From positions 13,139-77,138 of IMG/VR virus record IMGVR_UViG_2861452123_000001: a DNA stretch of 64,000 nt; one strand, given 5' to 3'. Positions 1,909-13,638 of the stretch are shown here, piece after piece (position 1 is the stretch's first letter; each line of letters starts with the position of its first letter). A program made the translations under genes and the position numbers. Below the pieces are notes generated by a model, which searched no databases, was not told where the DNA came from, and worked only from the letters and a program-made list of their open reading frames with translations. The DNA comes from a virus.

Positions 1909-3132
1909 CTACGTTCCCTTCACATTCATGACCTGGCGCAGCGTCGTGACGACTTCCACTAGGGGGTCCGCATCGGCCATCACCTGGTCGATGTCCTTGT
2001 ACGCGCCGGGGATCTCATCGATCCACTCATCGCCATGCCGGTACTCGATGCCCTCCATGGCTGCCGCGAGATCGTCAGCGGTGAACAGTTCCTTCGCCTT
2101 GGTCCGGCTGAACTTCCGACCAGCACCGTGCGGGGCAGAGAACAGTCCGGCCTCGTTGCCCTTCCCCCGCACCACGTACGACTTCGTGCCCATGGAGCCG
2201 GGGATAACACCCAGCTTCCCATCGTGGGCATCGATCGCTCCCTTGCGAGTGAGCCATACCCGTTGTCCCCCAATGGTTTCCGGTACGGTGTAGTTGTGGT
2301 GGCAGTTGATCCGGTCGATCTCGACGCGCTGTGGCTGCACACCCATCCACCAGGCGAACACCTGGACGAACCGGTCCATCATCTCGGCCCGGTTCAGGAA
2401 CGCGAACCGCTGCGCCCACTCCAGATCCTTGATGTAGCGGTCGAACTCAGGCGTGCCCTCTTCGAGGAATGCCAGATCACGGTTGGGGAGCTTGTAGTTC
2501 GCGCACTTGCAGTTCTCGATCGCGTGAGGCGCGACCTGCTTCTGGAGGCAGTACTCCGTGGCCACCTTGATGTGGCGCTGTGCGATCTTGTTGCCGACGC
2601 CACGGCTACCGCTGTGCAGGAACAGCCACACGTTGTCGTCGGCGTCCACACACAGCTCGATGAAGTGGTTACCGCCGCCGAGCGAGCCGAGCTGCTCCAT
2701 CCACTTCGGCGAGTGCGACAGATCCACGTCCAGCTTCTGCTGCAACTGGATCAGCTCTTCGTGCTTCGCCTTCGTGAACGTGAACCGCTGCAGCGTCTTG
2801 TTGTAGTTGCCGGGGCTGAGCGGGATGGCCTCCTCGACCTGGCGGCGCAACGATGCGAGGTCGAGGTGTGAGATCAGATCCCACTTGAACCGCGTGGCGA
2901 CGGCGATCATGCCGCAGCCGATGTCGACGCCGACCGCAGCAGGGATCACCGCACCCCTCGTCGGGATGACGGTGCCGACCGCAGATCCCTTGCCCGAGTG
3001 AGCATCCGGCATCAGTGCGACGTGCGGGTAGACGAACGGCATGCTCGCTGTTTCCTTCGCCTGCTCCACCGTGTTGTGGTCGATCATGCTGGCGAAGTTG
3101 ACGAGCTTCGGCGCGAGAGTTGTGGCGCTCAC
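1909..3132 (-). CDS. rtcB: RtcB RNA ligase
   Basis: MPDAHSG, GVDIGCGM, QLGSLGGGNHFIE, LHSGSRG, HHNY, RKGA, PGSMG, HGAGR, DEIPGAYK motifs. Confidence 0.97.
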   Translation of the reverse strand: MSATTLAPKLVNFASMIDHNTVEQAKETASMPFVYPHVALMPDAHSGKGSAVGTVIPTRGAVIPAAVGVDIGCGMIAVATRFKWDLISHLDLASLRRQVEEAIPLSPGNYNKTLQRFTFTKAKHEELIQLQQKLDVDLSHSPKWMEQLGSLGGGNHFIELCVDADDNVWLFLHSGSRGVGNKIAQRHIKVATEYCLQKQVAPHAIENCKCANYKLPNRDLAFLEEGTPEFDRYIKDLEWAQRFAFLNRAEMMDRFVQVFAWWMGVQPQRVEIDRINCHHNYTVPETIGGQRVWLTRKGAIDAHDGKLGVIPGSMGTKSYVVRGKGNEAGLFSAPHGAGRKFSRTKAKELFTADDLAAAMEGIEYRHGDEWIDEIPGAYKDIDQVMADADPLVEVVTTLRQVMNVKGT

Positions 3133-3500
3133 CGGACATCCCATTCCTTGGAATGCGCCTTGATGGCGTCCACGCATGCCCGCTTGCCGTCGATCAGGTA
3201 CGAGCTGACCCCCGACTGCCACTCGTAGCCCGTGAGGCCACGGATGTAGGCGATGGCGTCAGCCGTCGACAGGGGCTGCCCCCAGTCGCCGTCGGAACGG
3301 AAGTCCTCAAACGGCGACGGGCATGAACAACCGCTGTCCTCGCCGATCCGGTACGCCTTGCGCTTGGTGTCGTACAGGACGACGAGGGTGTCGAAGCTGT
3401 AGCAGGGTTCGGACTTCTCGAACTCGAAGACGAACTCCAGGTGCTCCAGGCCGTCGTGATACGACAGCCAATACGGGCGCTCGTACGTCTCGGCGCTCAC
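3129..3500 (-). CDS. Hypothetical protein (DSGCSCPSPFED family of actinophages)
   Basis: GTGA-coupled ORF; Cys motif. Confidence 0.7.
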   Translation of the reverse strand: MSAETYERPYWLSYHDGLEHLEFVFEFEKSEPCYSFDTLVVLYDTKRKAYRIGEDSGCSCPSPFEDFRSDGDWGQPLSTADAIAYIRGLTGYEWQSGVSSYLIDGKRACVDAIKAHSKEWDVR

Positions 3501-4582: not shown

Positions 4583-4617
4583 ACGAAAAAGCCCCCAGCT
4601 CTTACGAACTGGGGGCT
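4583..4617 (-). terminator. Intrinsic terminator of the tRNA operon
   Basis: AGCCCCCAG...CTGGGGGCT hairpin followed by TTTT. Confidence 0.85.
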
Positions 4618-4620
4618 GAC

Positions 4621-4693
4621 GTACTCGATGCGAGTATCGATCTCGCGCCTACAGATTGAGAATCTGGGATGCTTCCATTACACCAATCGAGCA
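4621..4693 (-). tRNA. tRNA-Glu(CTC)
   Basis: Cloverleaf, loop TT-CTC-AA, T loop ATCGATA. Confidence 0.8.
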
Positions 4694-4703
4694 TTGAAAC
4701 GAG

Positions 4704-4779
4704 CGCGGACAGCGGGATTTGAACCCGCGATCTCCACCGTGACAGGGTGGCGGGGACGGCCTGACTCCCCTATGCCTGC
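4704..4779 (-). tRNA. tRNA-Asp(GTC)
   Basis: CCACC-CTGTCAC-GGTGG arm, T loop TTCAAAT, G73. Confidence 0.9.
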
Positions 4780-4800
4780 ATGACTATTCAGTTATTGGAG

Positions 4801-4874
4801 TGGAGACGGTGAGAATCGAACTCGACCGCAGCAATCTTGCAAGGATCGCTCGCCCCCTTGGTACATGCGCCCCC
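4801..4874 (-). tRNA. tRNA-Ala(TGC)
   Basis: Loop CT-TGC-AA; G3:U70 pair; A73. Confidence 0.9.
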
Positions 4875-4877
4875 ATT

Positions 4878-4952
4878 GGCTCCCATGGCCGGAATCTCAC
4901 CGACGATCTCCGCGTAGACAGCGTGGCGGGTACTACTACCCTGCACAGGAGC
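4878..4952 (-). tRNA. Divergent second tRNA-Asp(GTC)-like gene
   Basis: Resembles the Asp gene at 4704; loop CT-GTC-TA; T loop TGAGATT. Confidence 0.55.
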
Positions 4953-4982
4953 GGGCAGTCACGCGTCACCGTGACTACTACC

Positions 4983-5060
4983 GGGCTGGAAGTCAGAATC
5001 GAACTGACGTAGTCCTACTTACTAGGTAGGTGCAAAGGGCCAACATTTGCAATTCCAGCC
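4983..5060 (-). tRNA. tRNA-Thr(AGT)
   Basis: CCTAC-CTAGTAA-GTAGG arm; perfect acceptor GGCTGGA/TCCAGCC. Confidence 0.8.
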
Positions 5061-5129
5061 TGACGCGGATGTGCTTCATATACACCACATCTAAGATGCC
5101 AGGCTTACGAACCTGGACCTTCCGCTAAG
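5061..5129 (-). ncRNA. Circularly permuted tRNA-like RNA 1 (YrlA-like topology)
   Basis: GCGGA-AGGT-[CCAGG TTCGTAAG CCTGG]-[CATC TTA GATG]-TG-[GTGT ATATGAA GCAC]-A-TCCGC. Confidence 0.7.
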
Positions 5130-5200
5130 TACCCAATGACCGAATTGAACAGTCGTCAACCGGGTGTAAACCGGCCGCTCTCCCATTGAGCTAATCGGGC
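5130..5200 (-). tRNA. tRNA-Val(TAC)
   Basis: GCCGG-TTTACAC-CCGGT arm; canonical D arm. Confidence 0.88.
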
Positions 5201-5265
5201 TTGAAAACCTGGCCTTGAGGCGCGTGCCCTAGAAGCGTTGCGCCACAGCGGGACAGGTGTTTACG

Positions 5266-5339
5266 AACTGGTAGCGGGATTCGAACCCGCACAACCTGTT
5301 TGGAAGACAGGGATGCTAACCGTTAAACATCACACCAGC
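5266..5339 (-). tRNA. tRNA-Gly(TCC)
   Basis: CCTGT-CTTCCAA-ACAGG arm; U73. Confidence 0.92.
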
Positions 5340-5340
5340 T

Positions 5341-5415
5341 TGGTACGGTCACCGGGTACTGCCCCCAGGTTTCCGTCTTATCAGGACGGCGTCCTTACTA
5401 TTGGACGATGACCGA
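5341..5415 (-). tRNA. tRNA-Ile(GAT)
   Basis: CCGTC-CTGATAA-GACGG arm; encoded ACCA; T loop GGCAGTA. Confidence 0.85.
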
Positions 5416-5416
5416 G

Positions 5417-5489
5417 TGGGTTGCCTGGGATTTGAACCCAGAACTGACACGTTAAGAGCGTGCGGTGATATCCGTTTCACCAACAACCC
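5417..5489 (-). tRNA. tRNA-Lys(CTT)
   Basis: GCACG-CTCTTAA-CGTGT arm; canonical T loop. Confidence 0.92.
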
Positions 5490-5790
5490 ATTGTTGTTGC
5501 CGCAGCTGACGATTCGCTGCGGCGATCTTGCGTACTTCGTTGCGGACGTGCTCGTCGCCTGGGTAGTTCGCCAGGTGCTCGGCTTGCGCCTTCCGCTGCT
5601 CGGCGTCGATGTTGGGCAGATCCTTGCCCAACCAGCACGCCCAGTTGAGGTTCTCATCGGTCAGCTCGACGTTCTGGCCAGCCGCCACGGCGGCGTTGTA
5701 CAGCTCGTCGTACTGCCGATTCCACTCAAGCTCCGCGTCACACAGCGGGCGGGTCATGGCCCAGACTTCGCGGAGGTTTGTGAGGCCCAT
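5452..5790 (-). CDS. Hypothetical protein inside the tRNA operon (3' end overlaps tRNA-Lys)
   Basis: AAGGAC RBS; phage-like codons. Confidence 0.65.
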   Translation of the reverse strand: MGLTNLREVWAMTRPLCDAELEWNRQYDELYNAAVAAGQNVELTDENLNWACWLGKDLPNIDAEQRKAQAEHLANYPGDEHVRNEVRKIAAANRQLRQQQWVVGETDITARS

Positions 5791-5813
5791 CGGTCCCGTC
5801 CTTCGTTGTTGCG

Positions 5814-5887
5814 TAGGTCACCCGAGAGTCGAACTCGGAAACTCTGCAGTCTGAGTGCAGTGGCTTTGCCAGTTTGCCCAGTGACCC
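5814..5887 (-). tRNA. tRNA-Leu(CAG) with short variable loop
   Basis: CTGCA-CTCAGAC-TGCAG arm; variable region only AGTTT; A73. Confidence 0.85.
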
Positions 5888-5888
5888 A

Positions 5889-5948
5889 TGGTGGCTGCCC
5901 GGTAGCCTGAACCCCTGTGAGCGCCAATGCCACCGACCGGCGGCAGCC
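5889..5948 (-). ncRNA. 60-nt hairpin RNA with acceptor-like stem and ACCA end
   Basis: GGCTGCC/GGCAGCC + ACCA; inner CGGTGGC/GCTACCG stem. Confidence 0.5.
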
Positions 5949-6004
5949 GTACTTTCGTGTCAGGGCACCTGGGCCTGAGCACGACCGGGTCCAGGTGCCC
6001 CTTG

Positions 6005-6075
6005 AGTGCCCGCCGCGATTCGAACGCGGGTGACTGGGGTTGCAGCCCAGCGCCTTGCCTCTCGGCCACGGTCAC
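6005..6075 (-). tRNA. tRNA-Cys(GCA)
   Basis: CTGGG-CTGCAAC-CCCAG arm; U73. Confidence 0.92.
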
Positions 6076-6078
6076 AAG

Positions 6079-6153
6079 TGGGGTGGTCGGCCGGTACTGA
6101 CCCGGCGTCGTCGCCGTTCACAGCGCGTGGCTCTACCTTTGAGCTACGACCAC
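6079..6153 (-). tRNA. tRNA-His(GTG)
   Basis: Loop CT-GTG-AA; C73 + CCA; weak anticodon stem; T loop GTCAGTA; T at position -1. Confidence 0.72.
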
Positions 6154-6155
6154 AG

Positions 6156-6228
6156 CACCGCTGACACGATTCGAACGTGCATTTGTGCGCCTTCGTAGGG
6201 CGGTGGGCCTCCGTTGCCCAACAGCGGT
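6156..6228 (-). tRNA. tRNA-Arg(ACG)
   Basis: CGCC-CTACGAA-GGCG arm; canonical T loop. Confidence 0.88.
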
Positions 6229-6253
6229 AGTGAGGCTTACGCCTCGTTGCAGA

Positions 6254-6496
6254 TTAATCCGCGCTGGTTGCCTCGGTGGCGGGCGTTTCGGCCACCGCTG
6301 GCACCTTCTTCGCTGGAGCCTTCTTCGGGGCCGCAGCGGGCTGCTCAGCGTCTTCGATCACTGCGTCGGTCTCGATCACGCCCGTCAGTGGCACCAGGCC
6401 AACCGCAAGGATGAGCTGCTCGATGAGTTCCGCGTGTTCGTTGATCGTGTCCGCTACGGCCTTGTCGATTCGTCCTGTGCTGACTCGTAGTGCCAC
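6254..6496 (-). CDS. Small hypothetical protein with Ala/Pro/Lys-rich tail, inside the tRNA operon
   Basis: GGAGG RBS + GTG; APKKAPAKK segment. Confidence 0.7.
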   Translation of the reverse strand: MALRVSTGRIDKAVADTINEHAELIEQLILAVGLVPLTGVIETDAVIEDAEQPAAAPKKAPAKKVPAVAETPATEATSAD

Positions 6497-6542
6497 TTGT
6501 TCCTCCGATTTGTGTTGTCCGATGCGGCCGCAAAGGACATCG

Positions 6543-6613
6543 TGGCGCAGACGGGATTCGAACCCGTAAAACTGGCTTATGAAACCAGGGTGATTCCGTT
6601 TCACTACCGCGCT
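6543..6613 (-). tRNA. tRNA-Met(CAT) (A1xC72 mismatch)
   Basis: CTGGT-TTCATAA-GCCAG arm; canonical T loop. Confidence 0.85.
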
Positions 6614-6760
6614 GCAGCCGCAGGACGTTTAACGTCCGCTGCGGCACGGACGGGTGTGGAGTGATATGGGGACGGGCGTTGTCCACGGCAACCCTGTAGC
6701 CGTCAGCGTCTTTCACCGGGGACGCAGAGACCGGCACCTACCTAACAACTTTGAGTGGCT

Positions 6761-6934
6761 CTAGGCCGCTATGACAGTGCCGTCCGGTAGGTGCGCCTTC
6801 AGGTCACTCAGTGGAAAGATCCGGCCGGTGAAGTACGTGCCCTCTGGCCATCGTGCCGCTGTCGTGGTTGGTCGGTCCCAGAGCTTCTCGTTGGAGAACA
6901 TTGGGTCGTCCCACCACTGCTTCTCATCTATCAC
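6761..6934 (-). CDS. Possible 57-aa protein starting directly after tRNA-Phe
   Basis: Own translation VIDEKQWWDDPMFSNEKLWDRP...DGTVIAA*; no RBS. Confidence 0.4.
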   Translation of the reverse strand: MIDEKQWWDDPMFSNEKLWDRPTTTAARWPEGTYFTGRIFPLSDLKAHLPDGTVIAA

Positions 6935-6935
6935 G

Positions 6936-7007
6936 CCGTGATGCCTGGAGCCGAACCAGGGCCTTCGGGTTTTCAGGCCGACGCTCTTCCAACTGAGCTA
7001 CAACACG
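6936..7007 (-). tRNA. tRNA-Phe(GAA)
   Basis: Loop CT-GAA-AA; canonical D arm. Confidence 0.85.
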
Positions 7008-7022
7008 ATTGGTTCCTCTGTT

Positions 7023-7242
7023 GTTGACGCTGCGAGGCACTCGGGACCGCGAATCCCGATCAGCGGGCGCCCTAACCCCGACACCCAGGGAGTCCCCCTA
7101 TTCCGCTGACCCACGTCAGTTTGGGACCACTGATCTGCGTGGAGGTTGGGGGGCCGATATTCCTACGCGCCTCGGCTTAACGCGAACTGGGGTGCCTCCG
7201 CGACGGCGCGTACGGTTCCTTGCAATCGAAGTCACCGTCAAC
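7023..7242 (-). ncRNA. ~220-nt structured RNA of unknown class
   Basis: Terminal stem GTTGACG/CGTCAAC; internal TACGCGCC/GGCGCGTA, CTGAC/GTCAG and TCGGGA/TCCCGA stems. Confidence 0.5.
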
Positions 7243-7249
7243 CCAAGCG

Positions 7250-7333
7250 CGGAGAGGAGTGGGCACGATCCACACGGCTGGGCCGCAAGCTGATTAGCAA
7301 TCAGTTCCCGCCACCTGGCGGGCTCCACTCTCC
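7250..7333 (-). tRNA. tRNA-Ser(GCT)
   Basis: Loop TT-GCT-AA; long variable arm; G73; T loop ATCGTGC. Confidence 0.85.
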
Positions 7334-7338
7334 AAAGT

Positions 7339-7410
7339 TGGCCTACCCTTTCAGACCGGCGTTGTCCCGGTGCACCTGTATTCACTCTTAGCCATGGCCA
7401 GGCGGGTAGG
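7339..7410 (-). ncRNA. Three-way-junction RNA ending in CCA
   Basis: CCTACCC/GGGTAGG + CCA; arms GCCTG/CAGGT and ACCGG/CCGGT. Confidence 0.45.
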
Positions 7411-7415
7411 TAACG

Positions 7416-7504
7416 CGGAAGGCAGAGGGCACGCTCCCCGAGCAGCCGAACTGCTACCTGGCTTTCGACACCAGTCGCCCCACTACGGGACTGCTGTACC
7501 TTCC
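7416..7504 (-). tRNA. tRNA-Ser(CGA)
   Basis: Loop GT-CGA-AA; long variable arm AGCAG/CTGCT; G73; T loop AGCGTGC. Confidence 0.8.
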
Positions 7505-7595
7505 ATGGGACGTATAACACTGTTTGTTCGGGTTCCCCCTACCGGCGTTACGTCATTATCAACCCGGTCTGCCACGACCCCGTCGTGGACTTTCG

Positions 7596-7670
7596 TCGGG
7601 AAGGCTGGATTCGAACCAGCGACACCCCGCTTCCAAAGCGGTCAGGCTGACCAAGCTGCCCCACATCCCG
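7596..7670 (-). tRNA. tRNA-Pro(TGG)
   Basis: CCGC-TTTGGAA-GCGG arm; C1:G72; A73. Confidence 0.92.
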
Positions 7671-7714
7671 ATTGCGACGGTTCCCACGACTTAGCTTTAC
7701 CGACAACGCATCAC

Positions 7715-7788
7715 GCACCCCGTCGAGGATTCGAACCTCAACCACCTGGATCAGAGCCAGGCATCCTGCCAGTTAAACGAACAGGGTA
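7715..7788 (-). tRNA. tRNA-Gln(CTG)
   Basis: CCTGG-CTCTGAT-CCAGG arm; canonical T loop. Confidence 0.88.
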
Positions 7789-7985
7789 TGGAGACGCTTC
7801 GTTCAGTCGGCCCAGCGTCACTGCCGATCACGCGCCCAGGCTGGGGACGGCCCTACCTACCCTCACCGTGCCCACGGGCGGGAGTGGTACCTCGCGTGTA
7901 TGTCAGAGCGGGTTCTCCCATTCATGACTGAGAGGGTGGACCGCTGACCCAGTTGACGGTTTGCCCCGGCCAACCAACGGAGTTG

Positions 7986-8067
7986 TCTCGACTGATGGAT
8001 TCGAACCACCACACCCGAAAGCTCTGATTTACAGTCAGAGATCCTTCGCCAATAGGAGAGAGCCGAG
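7986..8067 (-). tRNA. tRNA-Tyr(GTA)
   Basis: TCTGA-CTGTAAA-TCAGA arm; variable arm; C1:G72; A73. Confidence 0.88.
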
Positions 8068-8072
8068 ATGTC

Positions 8073-8173
8073 ATGGAATGACCGGCTTTTCCCCGGCATC
8101 TGCGACCGTCGACTGTCGCCGTGCTACCAAGAGCCGTCGCCACATGGCTGGTTTACCCTTGCACCACATTCCA
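8073..8173 (-). ncRNA. tRNA-like RNA with the anticodon arm replaced by a multi-hairpin insert
   Basis: Acceptor TGGAATG/CATTCCA; D-like and T-like arms; ~50-nt central domain. Confidence 0.5.
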
Positions 8174-8232
8174 AGTTTGGAGCCGGTGCTCGGCTCTTCG
8201 CCGACTAGCTAGCACGCACCGACACGTTTAAC

Positions 8233-8371
8233 GGAGCCGCTCTACCGTTGAGCCGTATACAACTGCCCGCACAAAGCCCCAACTGCTGGTACCGCGTCGG
8301 TGTAACTCTGCTCTCCCCCTGCAGAGGGAGCGGGAGGTCGCAGGGGGATTCGAACCCCCAACCACTCCTCG
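8233..8371 (-). ncRNA. Circularly permuted tRNA-like RNA 2
   Basis: GGAGT-GGTT-[GGGGG TTCGAAT CCCCC]-TGCGAC...GTTGTA-TACG-[GCTC AACGGTA GAGC]-G-GCTCC. Confidence 0.7.
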
Positions 8372-8444
8372 CTGGCCCACCAGGATTCGAACCTAGAGTC
8401 ACGCCTTAACAGGGCGTTGGTTTACCGGATTAACCGACAGGCCA
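8372..8444 (-). tRNA. tRNA-Asn(GTT)
   Basis: ACGCC-CTGTTAA-GGCGT arm; G73. Confidence 0.92.
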
Positions 8445-8848
8445 ATGGTATTGCAGTAATCACATCCGCTGCAACGCTGCCGATGTGTCCTTCCCCGATG
8501 GCAATTAGCGCACACCAGGTCGCACTTCACTGCTTCCGCTCGCATGCGGGCGAGGGAAACGATTGTGTTGCCGTCCGCTACACCGAATAGCTTCTCGGCC
8601 GGATCTCGGTGATCAAAATCCATCGCGTACGGCGGATATTCATTGCCGCAGTCGAGACACTTGCCCCCGTGCTCGGCAACCAGGGTTGCCTTGTTCTTTC
8701 GCCTAGTTCGAGCCACTGCATCAGAAGCCGATTCCTTTCGGCATACGTTGCAATGTCGGTCTTTTCGGATCACATCAACAGGACGATCACTGCGGTACTG
8801 GAACTCACTAAGTGCTTTCAATTTCCCACACTTGGGGCACGCTTTCAT
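8399..8848 (-). CDS. Free-standing HNH (homing-type) endonuclease in the tRNA operon
   Basis: CPKC...CNVC Zn motif, CLDC, MDFDHRDP, CDLVCANCH; RBS GAGGGTAGG. Confidence 0.88.
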   Translation of the reverse strand: MKACPKCGKLKALSEFQYRSDRPVDVIRKDRHCNVCRKESASDAVARTRRKNKATLVAEHGGKCLDCGNEYPPYAMDFDHRDPAEKLFGVADGNTIVSLARMRAEAVKCDLVCANCHRGRTHRQRCSGCDYCNTIGLSVNPVNQRPVKA

Positions 8849-9065
8849 GAGTTCACCTACCCTCTTATCAAGTCTGCCCCCACGGATGTCCGCAGTGGGG
8901 GATGCGGGGCAAATCGGTCGCCACTCCAGCGCCATTGCAGGCCGCGTATGCAACGGTGTGCGCCACTGTCGTTCGCGTTAGACTGCCTGCAACTAGGGCC
9001 GAACGGCGAACCGTCCAACCTCCACCACTTGCTTTTGAGGCGGGAAAGCAAGAAACCAAGTAACA

Positions 9066-9189
9066 GGCCCTGTGCTGCCTTACACCACGTCGACTCGCTC
9101 GCTGATCTGGCGGCGGCAGGCATGCGGCTGTACAGACGGCACACGATGTAAACGACGGCGGGACTTCGAAACCCGCACCAGGGCCTTTG
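9066..9189 (-). ncRNA. Circularly permuted tRNA-like RNA 3
   Basis: GGCCC-TGGT-[GCGGG TTTCGAAGT CCCGC]-CGTCG...CGACG-TG-[GTGT AAGGCA GCAC]-A-GGGCC. Confidence 0.72.
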
Positions 9190-9557
9190 TGGAGCTGCCG
9201 AGAATCGAACTCGGGTCTCATGCAGTGTTTGTCAAGCCTTCTACGTGCGTAGCGTTTGGCGACTTCTATACCGCTGCCCTCCGCGAGGCGGTTGCCGGTC
9301 TCCATTCCGGCTCTGCTCATGACTTCCGCTATTTTGCCTCTTGCGACGTGGTGCTCAATTCCTGCGAGGGTTCCCCGTATTTCGGCAGTGGATTGGCACA
9401 CGGAACGGGTGAACCGTTGTGCCCCACTGGACTAAGCCGCTGCGGCGTAGTCGGACGCGGTGAAAGCTGCGTTTATTGGGTTTGCACTGTTACGGGACGT
9501 TGCTTCCCGGCACGCTTCTCAAGACATACAAGCTCATGATCGAAACCTGTCAGCCCC
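9190..9557 (-). ncRNA. ssrA: tmRNA, tag (A)AAFTASDYAAAA
   Basis: 5' GGGGCTGACAGGTTTCGA; 3' GTTCGATTCTCGGCAGCTCCA with G3:U70; AATAAAC-GCA resume site; tag ORF 9470-9432. Confidence 0.95.
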
Positions 9558-9675
9558 AAAGGTATTGCTATGTAGTTGTCAAAGTCCCAATTGAAAGTGC
9601 TCAACCGGATTTTTGTTTGGGGGGGATTTTGAAACCAAAAGCCTTTTACCCAAACCGAAATCGCGGTTTACTGCG

Positions 9676-9748
9676 CGTAACCGGCACGATTCGAACGTGC
9701 ATCCACCCGCTTTGGAGGCGGGGACTCTACCAATTAAGCTACGTTCAC
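9676..9748 (-). tRNA. tRNA-Trp(CCA)
   Basis: CCCGC-CTCCAAA-GCGGG arm; G73. Confidence 0.92.
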
Positions 9749-9749
9749 A

Positions 9750-9784
9750 TGGTGGCCCACCGAGGCTTCGACTCCCGGTGGGCC
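9750..9784 (-). ncRNA. 35-nt acceptor/T-arm minihelix with ACCA end
   Basis: GGCCCAC-CGGG-AGTCGAAG-CC-T-CG-GTGGGCC-A-CCA. Confidence 0.55.
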
Positions 9785-9857
9785 AAGAGCCTGCCTCGCC
9801 ATTGATGGAAGGCTCTTACCTGTACCGCTGTGAGGCATTCGGTGCCTGACATGTATG

Positions 9858-11202: not shown

Positions 11203-11540
11203 CAGTCCCTTACGCGAACGTCGAAGCAGTTGGATGCGATGGGCTCGACGGAAACCGCGCGGCTAGCGCTGACACTCAGCACGCCGTCCTTCATGCGGAC
11301 GCCGACCTCGTCGTAGCTGTACTTCGAGGGTTCGCCGGTCGCGGAGAAGTACACGGTCTGGTACCCACGCTCGCTGGGAATGTACAGCTTGTTCTTCCAA
11401 TCGCCGTACCAGATGTGCGTCGGCTCCACGGTTTCCAAGTGTTCGGCGAGACGATGCTCCGCGGTCGCGGCGCGGTGACGCTCCCTGGCTAGCTCTTCGC
11501 GTGCCCACCGGGGCAGCTTCTCTTCACGGGGATCGCTCAC
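11202..11540 (-). CDS. Hypothetical protein (KLPRWA family of actinophages)
   Basis: GTGA-coupled ORF. Confidence 0.7.
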   Translation of the reverse strand: MSDPREEKLPRWAREELARERHRAATAEHRLAEHLETVEPTHIWYGDWKNKLYIPSERGYQTVYFSATGEPSKYSYDEVGVRMKDGVLSVSASRAVSVEPIASNCFDVRVRD

Positions 11541-12322
11541 GCTGCATCCTTTCGTATCACCAGCATGGTGTTGCGGTCGAGTGTCGTTGCGTCCATGTCC
11601 ATCCCGATGATCTGGGTTACATGCGCCGGTCCTGTGTACAGGCTGTTGTACCGGTTGTGATAGTGCCCGTGGAACAGGACGGCCGGACGGACAACGTCGA
11701 CCACCTTCTGCAGCTGCTTGCGGTTGACGGTGGACGCCTCGATCTCCGAGAGTGGCCACCCGCTACGGGCGGCGTCGAGCTTGTCGTCGGCATGGATGCC
11801 AGGAATGGCAACGCCGTATGGGCAGTCGTGGGTGACCATCACATCGACGTGACTGCCGTCTCCGATGGCACGTGCTACGTCGGCGTCGGAGATGTGTTCC
11901 CCGTCCCACCAAGACTTACCAGGGGTACGCTGCAGTCGGTCCACGGAGTGCGCACCACCGAGTGACATCCAGGTCTGGCCCCACCATTCCCAGCGGTGAC
12001 CGCGTGGCATGTGAATGATGTTGGGGTAGTTGGGGGCTGACCATGGCTGGTGATCGAAGGCGTCGACCCACTCTTCGAGGTCGTCGTGGTTCTCATGGTT
12101 GCCGTCGACCCAGTGCAGGGTGACGCCGCACTCCTGAAGGTTCTCCTGCAGGAACCGCAAGTACTTCCACGTGTCGCGGTCGAGGACACTCCACCAGCCG
12201 AAGTCGCCGACGTGAATGATGGTGTCGGCACCCGACTTGCGGGCGTGATGGATGACCTTCTGGCCCCATGCGCCGTTGCCATGCCAGTCGCCTGCGACGA
12301 GGATCTTGGTGGGTTCGTTCAT
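11537..12322 (-). CDS. Calcineurin-like metallophosphoesterase
   Basis: GDWHG, VGDFG, VDGNHENH, VTHD, FHGHYH. Confidence 0.93.
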   Translation of the reverse strand: MNEPTKILVAGDWHGNGAWGQKVIHHARKSGADTIIHVGDFGWWSVLDRDTWKYLRFLQENLQECGVTLHWVDGNHENHDDLEEWVDAFDHQPWSAPNYPNIIHMPRGHRWEWWGQTWMSLGGAHSVDRLQRTPGKSWWDGEHISDADVARAIGDGSHVDVMVTHDCPYGVAIPGIHADDKLDAARSGWPLSEIEASTVNRKQLQKVVDVVRPAVLFHGHYHNRYNSLYTGPAHVTQIIGMDMDATTLDRNTMLVIRKDAA

Positions 12323-12477
12323 CGGTTGACCACCATGACGTTGCGCCACTCCTCGGCCTTGCAGCCCATGCAGGTGCGCTTCTGGCACACCTGATCGCCG
12401 TTGTTGAACGCCTCGCCCCACGCGGTGTACATGTGGAAGCCGTGGAGGCTGCAGAGGTCTATTGCGCCAAGGCTCAC
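12319..12477 (-). CDS. Small Cys/His-rich protein
   Basis: Coupled ORF with C...H...CxxC pattern. Confidence 0.55.
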   Translation of the reverse strand: MSLGAIDLCSLHGFHMYTAWGEAFNNGDQVCQKRTCMGCKAEEWRNVMVVNR

Positions 12478-13041: not shown

Positions 13042-13638
13042 CTACGCCCATGAGCGAACCTCGGCTTCGAACGCGGGGTTGCATAGGGCCGCAGGCGACC
13101 GCTTATCGCGGAGTAGCGACACGATGAAGTCGCCGTCGATTGGGTCAGCGCCGGGGAGTTCCTGGCCCTGCCATTCGAGATAGAGCGCCTTGGCTGCGAC
13201 GAGGGACGACCGGTTGAGTCCAGCCTGGCAGTGCACCAGGACGGGGCCGGACTCGCGGCAGAGGTTGACCCAGCGAGCGAGCGCGTCGACTTGCTCGTAG
13301 CCCTGGTCCTCGGCGTCGTACATCTGCACGTACGTCTCGGACAGCACGTCATGGTTGATCGTGTACCGCTCCCACGGGTACAGCGACACCAGATGCTTGA
13401 TGTGCTTCGGGAGCACCAGGCCGGTTTCGCAGCCGCCCTGCCACAGGTTGTGTCCGATCTCGGAGATGTACGGCATGTCGAATGGCGTCCACCCATGGCG
13501 AGCCACGCCGCTGAGGCGCTGTGTCTGCGGGTCGGTGGTGATGTCGATGGCGGTGTGGTCGCCGTTGGACGCACGCCACTCGCGAGTAGTCGTTGGGTCG
13601 GTCACGACGAGGGTGATGTCCTCGGTGCGGAGCGCCAT
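13042..13638 (-). CDS. Dual-specificity (CX5R) phosphatase
   Basis: LVHCQAGLNRSSLV P-loop. Confidence 0.9.
   Translation of the reverse strand: MALRTEDITLVVTDPTTTREWRASNGDHTAIDITTDPQTQRLSGVARHGWTPFDMPYISEIGHNLWQGGCETGLVLPKHIKHLVSLYPWERYTINHDVLSETYVQMYDAEDQGYEQVDALARWVNLCRESGPVLVHCQAGLNRSSLVAAKALYLEWQGQELPGADPIDGDFIVSLLRDKRSPAALCNPAFEAEVRSWA

Follow-up and report, generated by a model that had tools for sequence, protein, structure and literature searches.

The 64,000-nucleotide (nt) stretch of viral DNA analysed here (the window; positions 13,139 to 77,138 of IMG/VR record IMGVR_UViG_2861452123_000001) contains an operon of transfer RNA (tRNA) and transfer-messenger RNA (tmRNA) genes on its minus strand, from 9784 to 4590, inside a cluster-M-like (Vilmaviridae) prophage of a mycobacterium. 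Comparison with related phages showed that this operon carries members of what the alignments indicate is a conserved, selected family of circularly permuted tRNA-like RNAs with a fixed placement in the Vilmaviridae tRNA/tmRNA operon. As predicted from these alignments, the acceptor/T-arm stack, the D arm and the elbow contacts in tertiary structure that characterize tRNA are all retained in the family, whose members end at the site of the anticodon loop. As an earlier reading of the window (the sequence-only reading) had proposed, three spacers could be parsed as permuted, tRNA-shaped RNAs that lack an anticodon loop: E1 after the tmRNA, E2 after tRNA-Asn and E3 after tRNA-Val (Table 1). That these are real, selected tRNA-shaped RNAs appears to us highly probable.

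E1, E2 and E3 share one order of parts, namely one strand of a closing stem, a 4-nt variable loop, a T arm, a closed acceptor helix, a connector of 2-4 nt, a D arm, a single nucleotide and the other strand of the closing stem, and they resemble tRNAs opened at the anticodon loop with the acceptor end sealed. In E1 the closing stem GGCCC/GGGCC encloses the variable loop UGGU, a T arm at 9176-9158, an acceptor helix CGUCG/CGACG capped by a 60-nt insert of two hairpins, the connector UG, a D arm at 9085-9072 and a final A. E2 has the closing stem GGAGU/GCUCC, the variable loop GGUU, a canonical T arm (GGGGG-UUCGAAU-CCCCC), an acceptor helix UGCGAC/GUUGUA capped by a 73-nt insert with the loops UGCA and GGUACCA, and the D arm GCUC-AACGGUA-GAGC. 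The minimal element E3 consists of GCGGA, AGGU, a T arm with an 8-nt loop, CAUC-UUA-GAUG, UG, the D arm GUGU-AUAUGAA-GCAC, A and UCCGC, and its framework is like that of the post-tmRNA element of phage EniyanLRS. None of the three has the 7-nt anticodon loop and the free acceptor end with a discriminator that define a functional tRNA, ARAGORN called none of them, and no coding signal was seen in their spacers. Each starts 3-4 nt past the discriminator of an upstream gene (tmRNA, tRNA-Asn or tRNA-Val) that does not encode CCA, as had been claimed, and the first spacer base is C.

Counterparts of E1 and E2 were found at matching positions in 12 related phages. The post-tmRNA element is present in PegLeg/Skinny/Bongo, Bricole, Reindeer, Nanosmite, Rey, prophi86-1, prophiT49-2, EniyanLRS and Wildcat, and the post-tRNA-Asn element in Rey, MrMagoo, Aziz and Reindeer. 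The latter elements are compact (70-74 nt) and have exact tRNA geometry. Their acceptor helix has 5-8 base pairs (bp), mostly 7, and is closed by a loop of 5-10 nt; U8-A9 and a 4-bp D stem follow, a single base separates the D stem from the 5-bp closing stem, the variable loop has 5 nt, and the T stem has 5 bp and the loop UUCGAAU. A strict scan for permuted elements gave eight true matches in the relatives, none on the reverse strands and none in 20 shuffles. With relaxed settings the forward strands yielded 28 parses, the reverse strands 2 and a shuffle set on average 0.5.

The fold itself was recovered without being imposed. Unconstrained RNAalifold on six post-tmRNA elements returned the closing stem, the T arm, the acceptor helix with its three-way insert and the D arm, with a compensatory change in 19 of the 37 pairs. 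In the E1 alignment 93.2% of the cells are paired, compared with 31-48% when the partners are slid, and 20 pairs are doubly changed, compared with 1-6 in the slid controls (0 of 500 shuffles reached this number). Compensatory base changes in related phages, whose absence the sequence-only reading had named as evidence against itself, are thus abundant and are present in all four helices. Features that lie outside the demands of our parser are also kept among 13 distinct elements: G53-C61 occurs in all 13, GG in the D loop in 12, and the tertiary pair 15-48 is A-U in six elements and G-C in five, switching together with the type of D arm. The covariation of this pair argues for an L-shaped fold. 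G-U pairs are frequent in the elements and therefore selection acts on this RNA strand.

Several observations weigh against reading E1-E3 as a selected and active family. Single-sequence folding is unremarkable for the two larger elements (z of -0.7 for E1 and -1.2 for E2; -3.3 for E3) and the tRNA-like folds lie 1-3.6 kcal/mol above the minimum free energy (1 kcal/mol for E2); since these energies are not exceptional the support for E1 and E2 is comparative. The independent lineages behind the comparison are few (about eight) and related to one another. No clear permuted element was seen in a M. palauense prophage whose array is similar, which makes the elements dispensable. E1 and E3 have non-canonical T loops (9 and 8 nt) and E3 is without elbow contacts, and therefore not all three need be active. 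Among the public RNA runs searched none covered the array region. Because E3 was found in the window only, with no counterpart at that site in the relatives, and because it lacks the elbow contacts (no GG in the D loop, no 15-48 pair), we regard it, on the evidence of its sequence, as a degenerate copy.

Searches beyond these phages added no further members. A DNA search of 400 genomes of the host family returned tRNA matches only, a covariance-model search of 150 genomes of the genus returned tRNA-junction matches only, and an IMG/VR pattern scan for the D-arm side of E1 returned two already-known isolates and chance coding matches. In an RtcB-based scan of genome contigs nine of ten loci were without a tRNA array and the tenth was that of M. 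palauense. Covariance models of the permuted fold also score plain tRNA-tRNA junctions, so that the complementarity of the strands must be checked for every match; in 84 of 151 genomes a score of 37-45 bits falls on the host tRNA-Glu/tRNA-Asp junction, and a model built from three compact elements (R1) was too narrow and scored tRNA junctions as well. This behaviour of the models would fit a reading of the elements as inert debris, composed of the 3' half of a decayed tRNA gene and the 5' half of the next one and generated by shuffling of the array driven by HNH endonucleases. HNH genes are indeed numerous in these arrays, and E3 as well as a tRNA-Asp-like sequence at 4950-4877 appear degenerate. 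In a mere junction, however, the two acceptor strands and the two anticodon-stem strands belong to different tRNAs and need not pair, whereas both pair in every element, with compensatory changes and a covarying tertiary pair, and the positions of the elements are kept across genera. We consider debris a very unlikely explanation.

The closest known RNAs are the YrlA Y RNAs (RF02553; PMC4201824). They share with the phage elements the permuted order of T arm, closed acceptor-like helix and D arm with the ends on the anticodon side, as well as the elbow nucleotides of tRNA and a 15-48 pair that alternates between G-C and A-U. Against the Rey counterpart the Rfam YrlA model scores 43.6 bits, in an alignment confined to model positions 23-85, its tRNA-like core; in the window it matches E2 at 17.4 bits and gives no match to E1 or E3, and all scores (17-44 bits) compare with a gathering threshold of 69. 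The parses and the match to Rey bear out the YrlA-type permuted D/T/acceptor topology that had been recognized from the sequence alone. Of the weak YrlA matches elsewhere in the host genome, those on contigs C6 and C4 turned out to be tandem host tRNA junctions and were discarded. The differences are equally clear. The phage elements are without the Ro60-binding stem and without the GNCGAAN0-1G motif, their only CGAA strings being T loops; they lie in a tRNA/tmRNA operon, 3-4 nt past the end of a tRNA; and those of the E1 type bear a 60-nt bifurcated insert with palindromic loops. With only 3-4 nt between the upstream gene and the 5-bp closing stem there is no room for a Ro60-binding module.

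One could nevertheless imagine that the elements are YrlA-type Y RNAs partnering a Ro60/Rsr ring protein of the host. The identical permuted topology and the YrlA model matches speak for this, and YrlA is known in mycobacteriophages that encode Ro60, while M. smegmatis, the host of most of the relatives, has both Rsr and YrlA (PMC4201824). A match to the Ro60/TROVE domain (PF05731) was found neither in the host genome (100% complete) nor in the prophage nor in five related phages, and the non-structural arm of the prophage holds no large unexplained open reading frame (ORF) that could be a candidate; two function-unassigned ORFs of 444 and 376 amino acids sit in the tail/lysis module. The ORFs of the window match Pfam families other than TROVE, or no family. 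Together with the lack of room for a binding module and scores far under the gathering threshold, these results make a Y RNA identity highly improbable, and with no TROVE match in these genomes a Ro60 partner was rejected. Judged by fold and model match, the elements come closest to the tRNA-like module of YrlA, and they do not belong among the YrlA Y RNAs proper.

How could such RNAs be made and what might they do? We propose that the permuted RNAs are co-transcribed with the tRNAs and that RNase Z, in cutting at the discriminator of the CCA-less tRNA or tmRNA that precedes them, would free their 5' ends. It is plausible that ordinary maturation of tRNA 3' ends releases the 5' end, as the sequence-only reading had suggested, and the distance of 3-4 nt from the upstream discriminator is constant across 13 elements. 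The released RNAs would form stable L-shaped bodies for which charging, decoding and cleavage in an anticodon loop are all impossible, and they could occupy a factor that reads the body or elbow of tRNA, either a host tRNA-directed nuclease or modifier, for which they would be decoys, or a processing or translation factor. Their action would be independent of Ro60. For the compact relatives with 7-bp acceptor stems the outcome might differ. M. smegmatis YrlA, whose acceptor helix is also of 7 bp, is cut by RNase P and gains CCA in vivo (Chen et al. 2014, PMC4201824), and opening by RNase P followed by CCA addition would be a plausible fate for these relatives too. This precedent is inapplicable to E1 and E2 of the window because their acceptor helices run on into inserts of 60-73 nt. 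Permuted tRNA-like RNAs that bind a factor reading the tRNA body are in our view the best explanation as a whole, and we give it an even chance of being correct; the odds seem similarly balanced for the narrower claim that the RNAs act by protein binding as tRNA mimics, with a partner that is hypothetical.

The constant spacing could also be explained by a role in cis, in which a compact, nuclease-resistant fold organizes RNase Z cleavage, blocks 3' exonucleases or prevents misfolding of its neighbours, the tRNA shape serving solely to recruit processing enzymes. In line with such a role, the discriminator distance and the first spacer base C are kept in 13 elements, the post-tmRNA position is kept across two phage genera and beyond, and downstream of the 3' strand there is often a G-U-U-A motif. 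On the other hand, the majority of the tRNAs in the array manage without such an element, and the elbow contacts and insert loops are conserved to a degree beyond what a mere roadblock requires. Encoded CCA inhibits RNase Z, yet E1 is present in Nanosmite, Rey and PegLeg, whose tmRNAs encode CCA. A cis role therefore seems unlikely to us. As an observation on the 3' flank, the closing stem is followed by G-U-U-A, or by G-U-A/U-A, in 11 of 15 permuted elements (at 9065-9060 and 8232-8229 in the window, and in relatives).

The circular-INTERMEDIATE alternative put forward with the sequence-only reading is that the elements are permuted tRNA genes, whose transcripts RtcB or another ligase would circularize and which would become functional tRNAs once cut in the acceptor loop. 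The 3' half comes first, an order also known from permuted tRNA genes in Cyanidioschyzon merolae and from split tRNAs, and a ligase gene lies nearby. The Cyanidioschyzon genes, however, encode complete tRNAs with anticodon loops, matured through a circular intermediate and a splicing endonuclease, whereas the phage elements are without an anticodon loop and no conserved anticodon-loop halves are found in their flanks. E3 alone has a tRNA on either side, and its ends, if joined, would form a loop of 9 nt, GUCAGCUUA; the acceptor arms of E1 and E2 hold structured inserts of 60-73 nt. By established RtcB chemistry the ends left by RNase Z and RNase P are not substrates of this ligase, and relatives without RtcB keep the element. 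We rejected circular maturation and give it next to no credence.

It has further been suggested that the elements form the third layer of a counter-defence kit composed of replacement tRNAs, RtcB repair and uncleavable decoys that absorb anticodon nucleases and other tRNA-directed toxins. The tRNA shape, the missing anticodon loop and the sealed acceptor ends fit this idea, as does the operon shared with a near-complete tRNA set, tmRNA and RtcB. In the Aziz array an RNA with the abiF motif, which is otherwise tied to abortive-infection genes, lies between tRNA-Gly and tRNA-Val (L028:5549-5585; 42.9 bits, gathering score 37); it may be an antitoxin-like decoy and would fit the carriage of anti-defence cargo at the RNA level. 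The motif has no match in the window. Against the idea, most known tRNA nucleases read the anticodon stem-loop, which is absent from E1-E3; PrrC, RloC, VapC and colicins all recognize this part of the tRNA. Moreover, Wildcat and EniyanLRS retain the post-tmRNA element without RtcB, and because of this the tie to RtcB is loose and not obligatory. That the elements are specifically anti-defence decoys we take as a tentative, minority possibility, and the full three-layer kit is somewhat less probable again.

The inserts of the E1-type elements led us to a further hypothesis. Hairpin 1 of the insert has a 7-nt loop made of one base and a 6-nt palindrome, and the palindrome changes between phages while remaining self-complementary: C-UGUACA in the window (9135-9129), U-CUGCAG in Rey, Nanosmite and Reindeer, and GUGCAC in PegLeg, Bricole, SlimJimmy and prophi86-1. 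The loops of hairpin 2 are UAGCUA, UGAUCA or have a GAUC/AGCU core. This covariation, a new feature based on few independent events, suggests as a hypothesis that copies of the RNA could associate with one another through kissing loops, so that the long acceptor arm may pair two or more copies. GOLLD and ROOL RNAs oligomerize via kissing loops, which build their cages (PMC12286853), and the same contact is what we propose for the E1 loops, where oligomerization is inferred only. We are led to speculate that the permuted RNAs are Ro60-independent mimics, excised from the tRNA/tmRNA transcript and self-associating via kissing loops, which would serve during lytic growth as multivalent sponges or scaffolds for a host factor that reads the tRNA body, be it a defence toxin or a processing enzyme. 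This combination of steps is doubtful and we hold it about as improbable as the cis role. Palindromic loops are also seen elsewhere in these arrays. Across the window and 12 related arrays a 6-nt palindrome occurs in 30 of 341 predicted spacer hairpin loops of 6-9 nt, versus 8.5 +/- 2.8 after shuffling, 10 of the 30 being UUCGAA T loops. The loop GGUACCA is identical in the window (8293), EniyanLRS and Wildcat, and what is apparently the same Thr-Asp spacer hairpin has UUGCAA in Nanosmite and Rey and AGAUCU in Skinny and PegLeg.

If the permuted RNAs are active, the tRNA-like module of Y RNAs would have an existence outside Ro60 biology, and a third kind of cargo would join tRNAs and giant RNAs like GOLLD in the tRNA islands of phages. 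They would then offer a genetically tractable handle on why phages carry tRNA mimics, and on whether RNA decoys or self-assembling small RNAs play a role when phage and host compete for tRNA. M. smegmatis supports the growth of PegLeg, Rey and Reindeer. The permuted elements and the anticodon-less RNA that precedes tRNA-Tyr (below) are unannotated or inconsistently called tRNAs in GenBank phage records.

Other spacers of the operon hold further structured RNAs. The pre-tRNA-Tyr RNA at 8173-8073, originally described as a tRNA body with a replaced anticodon arm, has a homologue in the GGAAUGUG... element that precedes tRNA-Tyr in Skinny and Reindeer, where the anticodon arm is also aberrant (GGG-GGCA-CCC in Reindeer). 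The counterparts carry varied labels in GenBank: tRNA-OTHER in Skinny, and Gln(ttg), Ala(cgc) or Arg for look-alikes in other relatives. Immediately 3' of E1 lies E1b, a two-hairpin element (GGUUUC, hairpin, UGGUGG, hairpin) that is conserved in PegLeg, Rey, Reindeer, Nanosmite and Aziz with compensatory changes in 9 of its 19 pairs and that has no match in Rfam. From the sequence alone a CCA minihelix and two more CCA-ended hairpins had been described, and of these the hairpin at 9784-9750 proved conserved and that at 8223-8178 has a homologue with a covarying stem in prophiGD54-2 (L029:2415-2460). The CCA of the leader hairpin is not itself conserved, as ACCT or ACAT follows the stem in relatives, and no homologue of the 5948-5889 hairpin was found among the relatives. 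When 7-bp stems with NCCA behind them were sought in general, there were 158 matches forward, 135 on the reverse strand and about 110 after shuffling; in view of this lack of enrichment we rejected CCA-ended hairpins as a class, leaving 9784-9750 and 8223-8178 as the only two with comparative support. Hairpins or ORFs immediately 5' of tRNAs often end in ACCA-U adjoining the tRNA (8446-8475 and 5889-5948 on the minus strand of the window, and in relatives), and in relatives the annotated ORFs run about 10 nt into the tRNA that comes after them.

Table 1. Features of the tRNA/tmRNA operon and its surroundings in the window, and GOLLD RNAs in related arrays (positions in the latter are preceded by the locus, L)
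Feature	Position	Strand	Evidence
tRNA/tmRNA operon	4621-9748	-	ARAGORN, Rfam
E1, permuted tRNA-like RNA	9066-9185	-	parse; orthologues in 10 phages; de novo consensus fold; covariation; covariance model R2, 89.8 bits
E2, permuted tRNA-like RNA	8233-8368	-	parse; compact counterparts in relatives; weak Rfam YrlA match, 17.4 bits
E3, minimal permuted tRNA-like RNA	5065-5125	-	parse; z -3.3
E1b, two-hairpin element	8996-9059	-	alignment with 5 phages
tRNA-like body, acceptor UGGAAUG/CAUUCCA, anticodon arm replaced by a multi-hairpin domain of ~50 nt	8073-8173	-	homology to relatives
Leader hairpin, 11-bp stem then ACCA, 1 nt short of tRNA-Trp	9750-9784	-	z -4.8; covarying stems at the same place in relatives
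Hairpin with U-CCA end, 8-bp stem, inner 5-bp hairpin stacked on the 3' strand	8178-8223	-	z -2.0
Irregular 60-nt hairpin, 7-bp terminal stem, A-CCA end 1 nt before tRNA-Leu	5889-5948	-	z only -1.65
tmRNA	9189-9557	-	Rfam RF00023, 90.5 bits; ARAGORN
tRNA-Ser(gct)	7249-7333	-	ARAGORN at -ps85, below default thresholds; aligns with tRNA-Ser(gct) of PegLeg and Reindeer
tRNA-His(gug)-like	6079-6153	-	Rfam tRNA, 39.4 bits; aligns with tRNA-His of prophiGD54-2
tRNA-Ile(gat), non-canonical T loop	5344-5415	-	Rfam tRNA, 41.8 bits; tRNA-Ile annotated at the same position in relatives
Degenerate tRNA-Asp-like sequence, G-CCA end (weak candidate)	4877-4950	-	ARAGORN only at -ps85; z +0.16
HNH endonuclease ORF, 3' end overlapping tRNA-Asn	8399-8848	-	PHROG 2255, E 6e-31
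Intrinsic terminator at operon end	4590-4617	-	12-bp stem and U tract
RtcB RNA ligase	1909-3222	-	Pfam PF01139, 373.5 bits
Calcineurin-type metallophosphoesterase	11537-12421	-	Pfam PF00149, E 1.1e-7
Dual-specificity (CX5R) phosphatase	13042-13638	-	Pfam DSPc and related families
GOLLD in relatives	L024:2337-2750		Rfam
GOLLD in relatives	L026:2336-2749		Rfam
GOLLD in relatives	L025:2333-2756		Rfam
GOLLD in relatives	L028:2303-2716		Rfam
GOLLD in relatives	L027:2107-2524		Rfam
GOLLD in relatives	L002:2774-3151		Rfam
GOLLD in relatives	L003:3444-3887		Rfam
GOLLD in relatives	L029:3685-4128		Rfam

The operon that houses these elements contains 17 canonical tRNAs and the tmRNA as detected by ARAGORN and Rfam, and looser thresholds together with synteny added three tRNAs (Ser, His and Ile) to give a total of 20 tRNAs and the tmRNA. 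The genes are arranged in the order Trp, tmRNA, Asn, Tyr, Gln, Pro, Ser, Phe, Met, Arg, His, Cys, Leu, Lys, Ile, Gly, Val, Thr, Ala, Asp, Glu, and past tRNA-Glu follow small ORFs and then RtcB. The tmRNA encodes the tag AAFTASDYAAAA and ends in CUCCA-C with CCA not encoded. The tRNA-His(gug)-like gene has an encoded C-CCA, a 1-nt bulge in its anticodon stem and a non-canonical T loop. It had been stated that almost every spacer between canonical tRNAs holds a tRNA sub-structure, which is overstated: three of these spacers hold the bona fide non-canonical tRNAs Ser, His and Ile, and others hold ORFs (5790-5452 and about 6496-6254, besides the HNH gene). The RtcB, the CX5R phosphatase and the metallophosphoesterase that had been assigned to the same arm were all confirmed by Pfam matches; a dual-specificity phosphatase gene upstream of the array is also found in Wildcat and EniyanLRS.

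The array is syntenic with those of cluster M mycobacteriophages and of Vilmaviridae prophages of M. abscessus, and qualifies as a Vilmaviridae (cluster M/V) array. The locus had been put forward as a candidate new system, but cluster M phages have already been described as carrying a tRNA array with tmRNA and RtcB (Pope et al. 2014, J Virol 88:2461, as cited in PMC5966550). The window shares with the cluster M locus the gene order, HNH genes within the array and non-canonical tRNAs, and differs in two respects: the GenBank records that were examined have no annotation for the permuted elements, and GOLLD RNA (RF02032) is carried inside the array by all eight cluster M relatives examined, at 182-216 bits (our criterion was at least 150 bits), whereas in the window GOLLD has no match even at E 10. 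The presence of GOLLD in Mycobacterium tRNA arrays has itself been published (Morgado 2020, as cited in PMC12286853). GOLLD and ROOL (PMC12286853) are, like the permuted elements, structured non-coding RNAs of unsettled function among phage tRNAs, and E2 adjoins the 5' side of GOLLD in relatives; the elements are, however, far smaller (60-136 nt), their fold derives from that of tRNA and Rfam matches them to neither RNA. A reading as a GOLLD remnant was rejected.

Some smaller observations concern the relatives and the host. In the tRNA-Val/tRNA-Thr spacer, where the window has E3, relatives carry a conserved 60-nt element, GUCGACCUGACGAGGUC... (L025:5560-5619; also in Nanosmite, Skinny, PegLeg, MrMagoo and Aziz), which by eye forms an H-type pseudoknot with covarying stems and which no Rfam family matched. 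The prophage sits in an actinobacterial host genome of 8.6 Mb, and another contig of this host carries a second, distinct array of at least 15 tRNAs (G000:C6:7747-10701; L043). The GOLLD of relatives often has a nested tRNA, and a small annotated ORF lies just 5' of it, in what may be the unmodelled 5' part of GOLLD. PegLeg gp93 (L026:2004-2075), labelled as a second tRNA-Asn, spans a conserved UUGGGGCAUGG...CCCCAUGCAA element, which resembles the beginning of the GOLLD region and not a tRNA.

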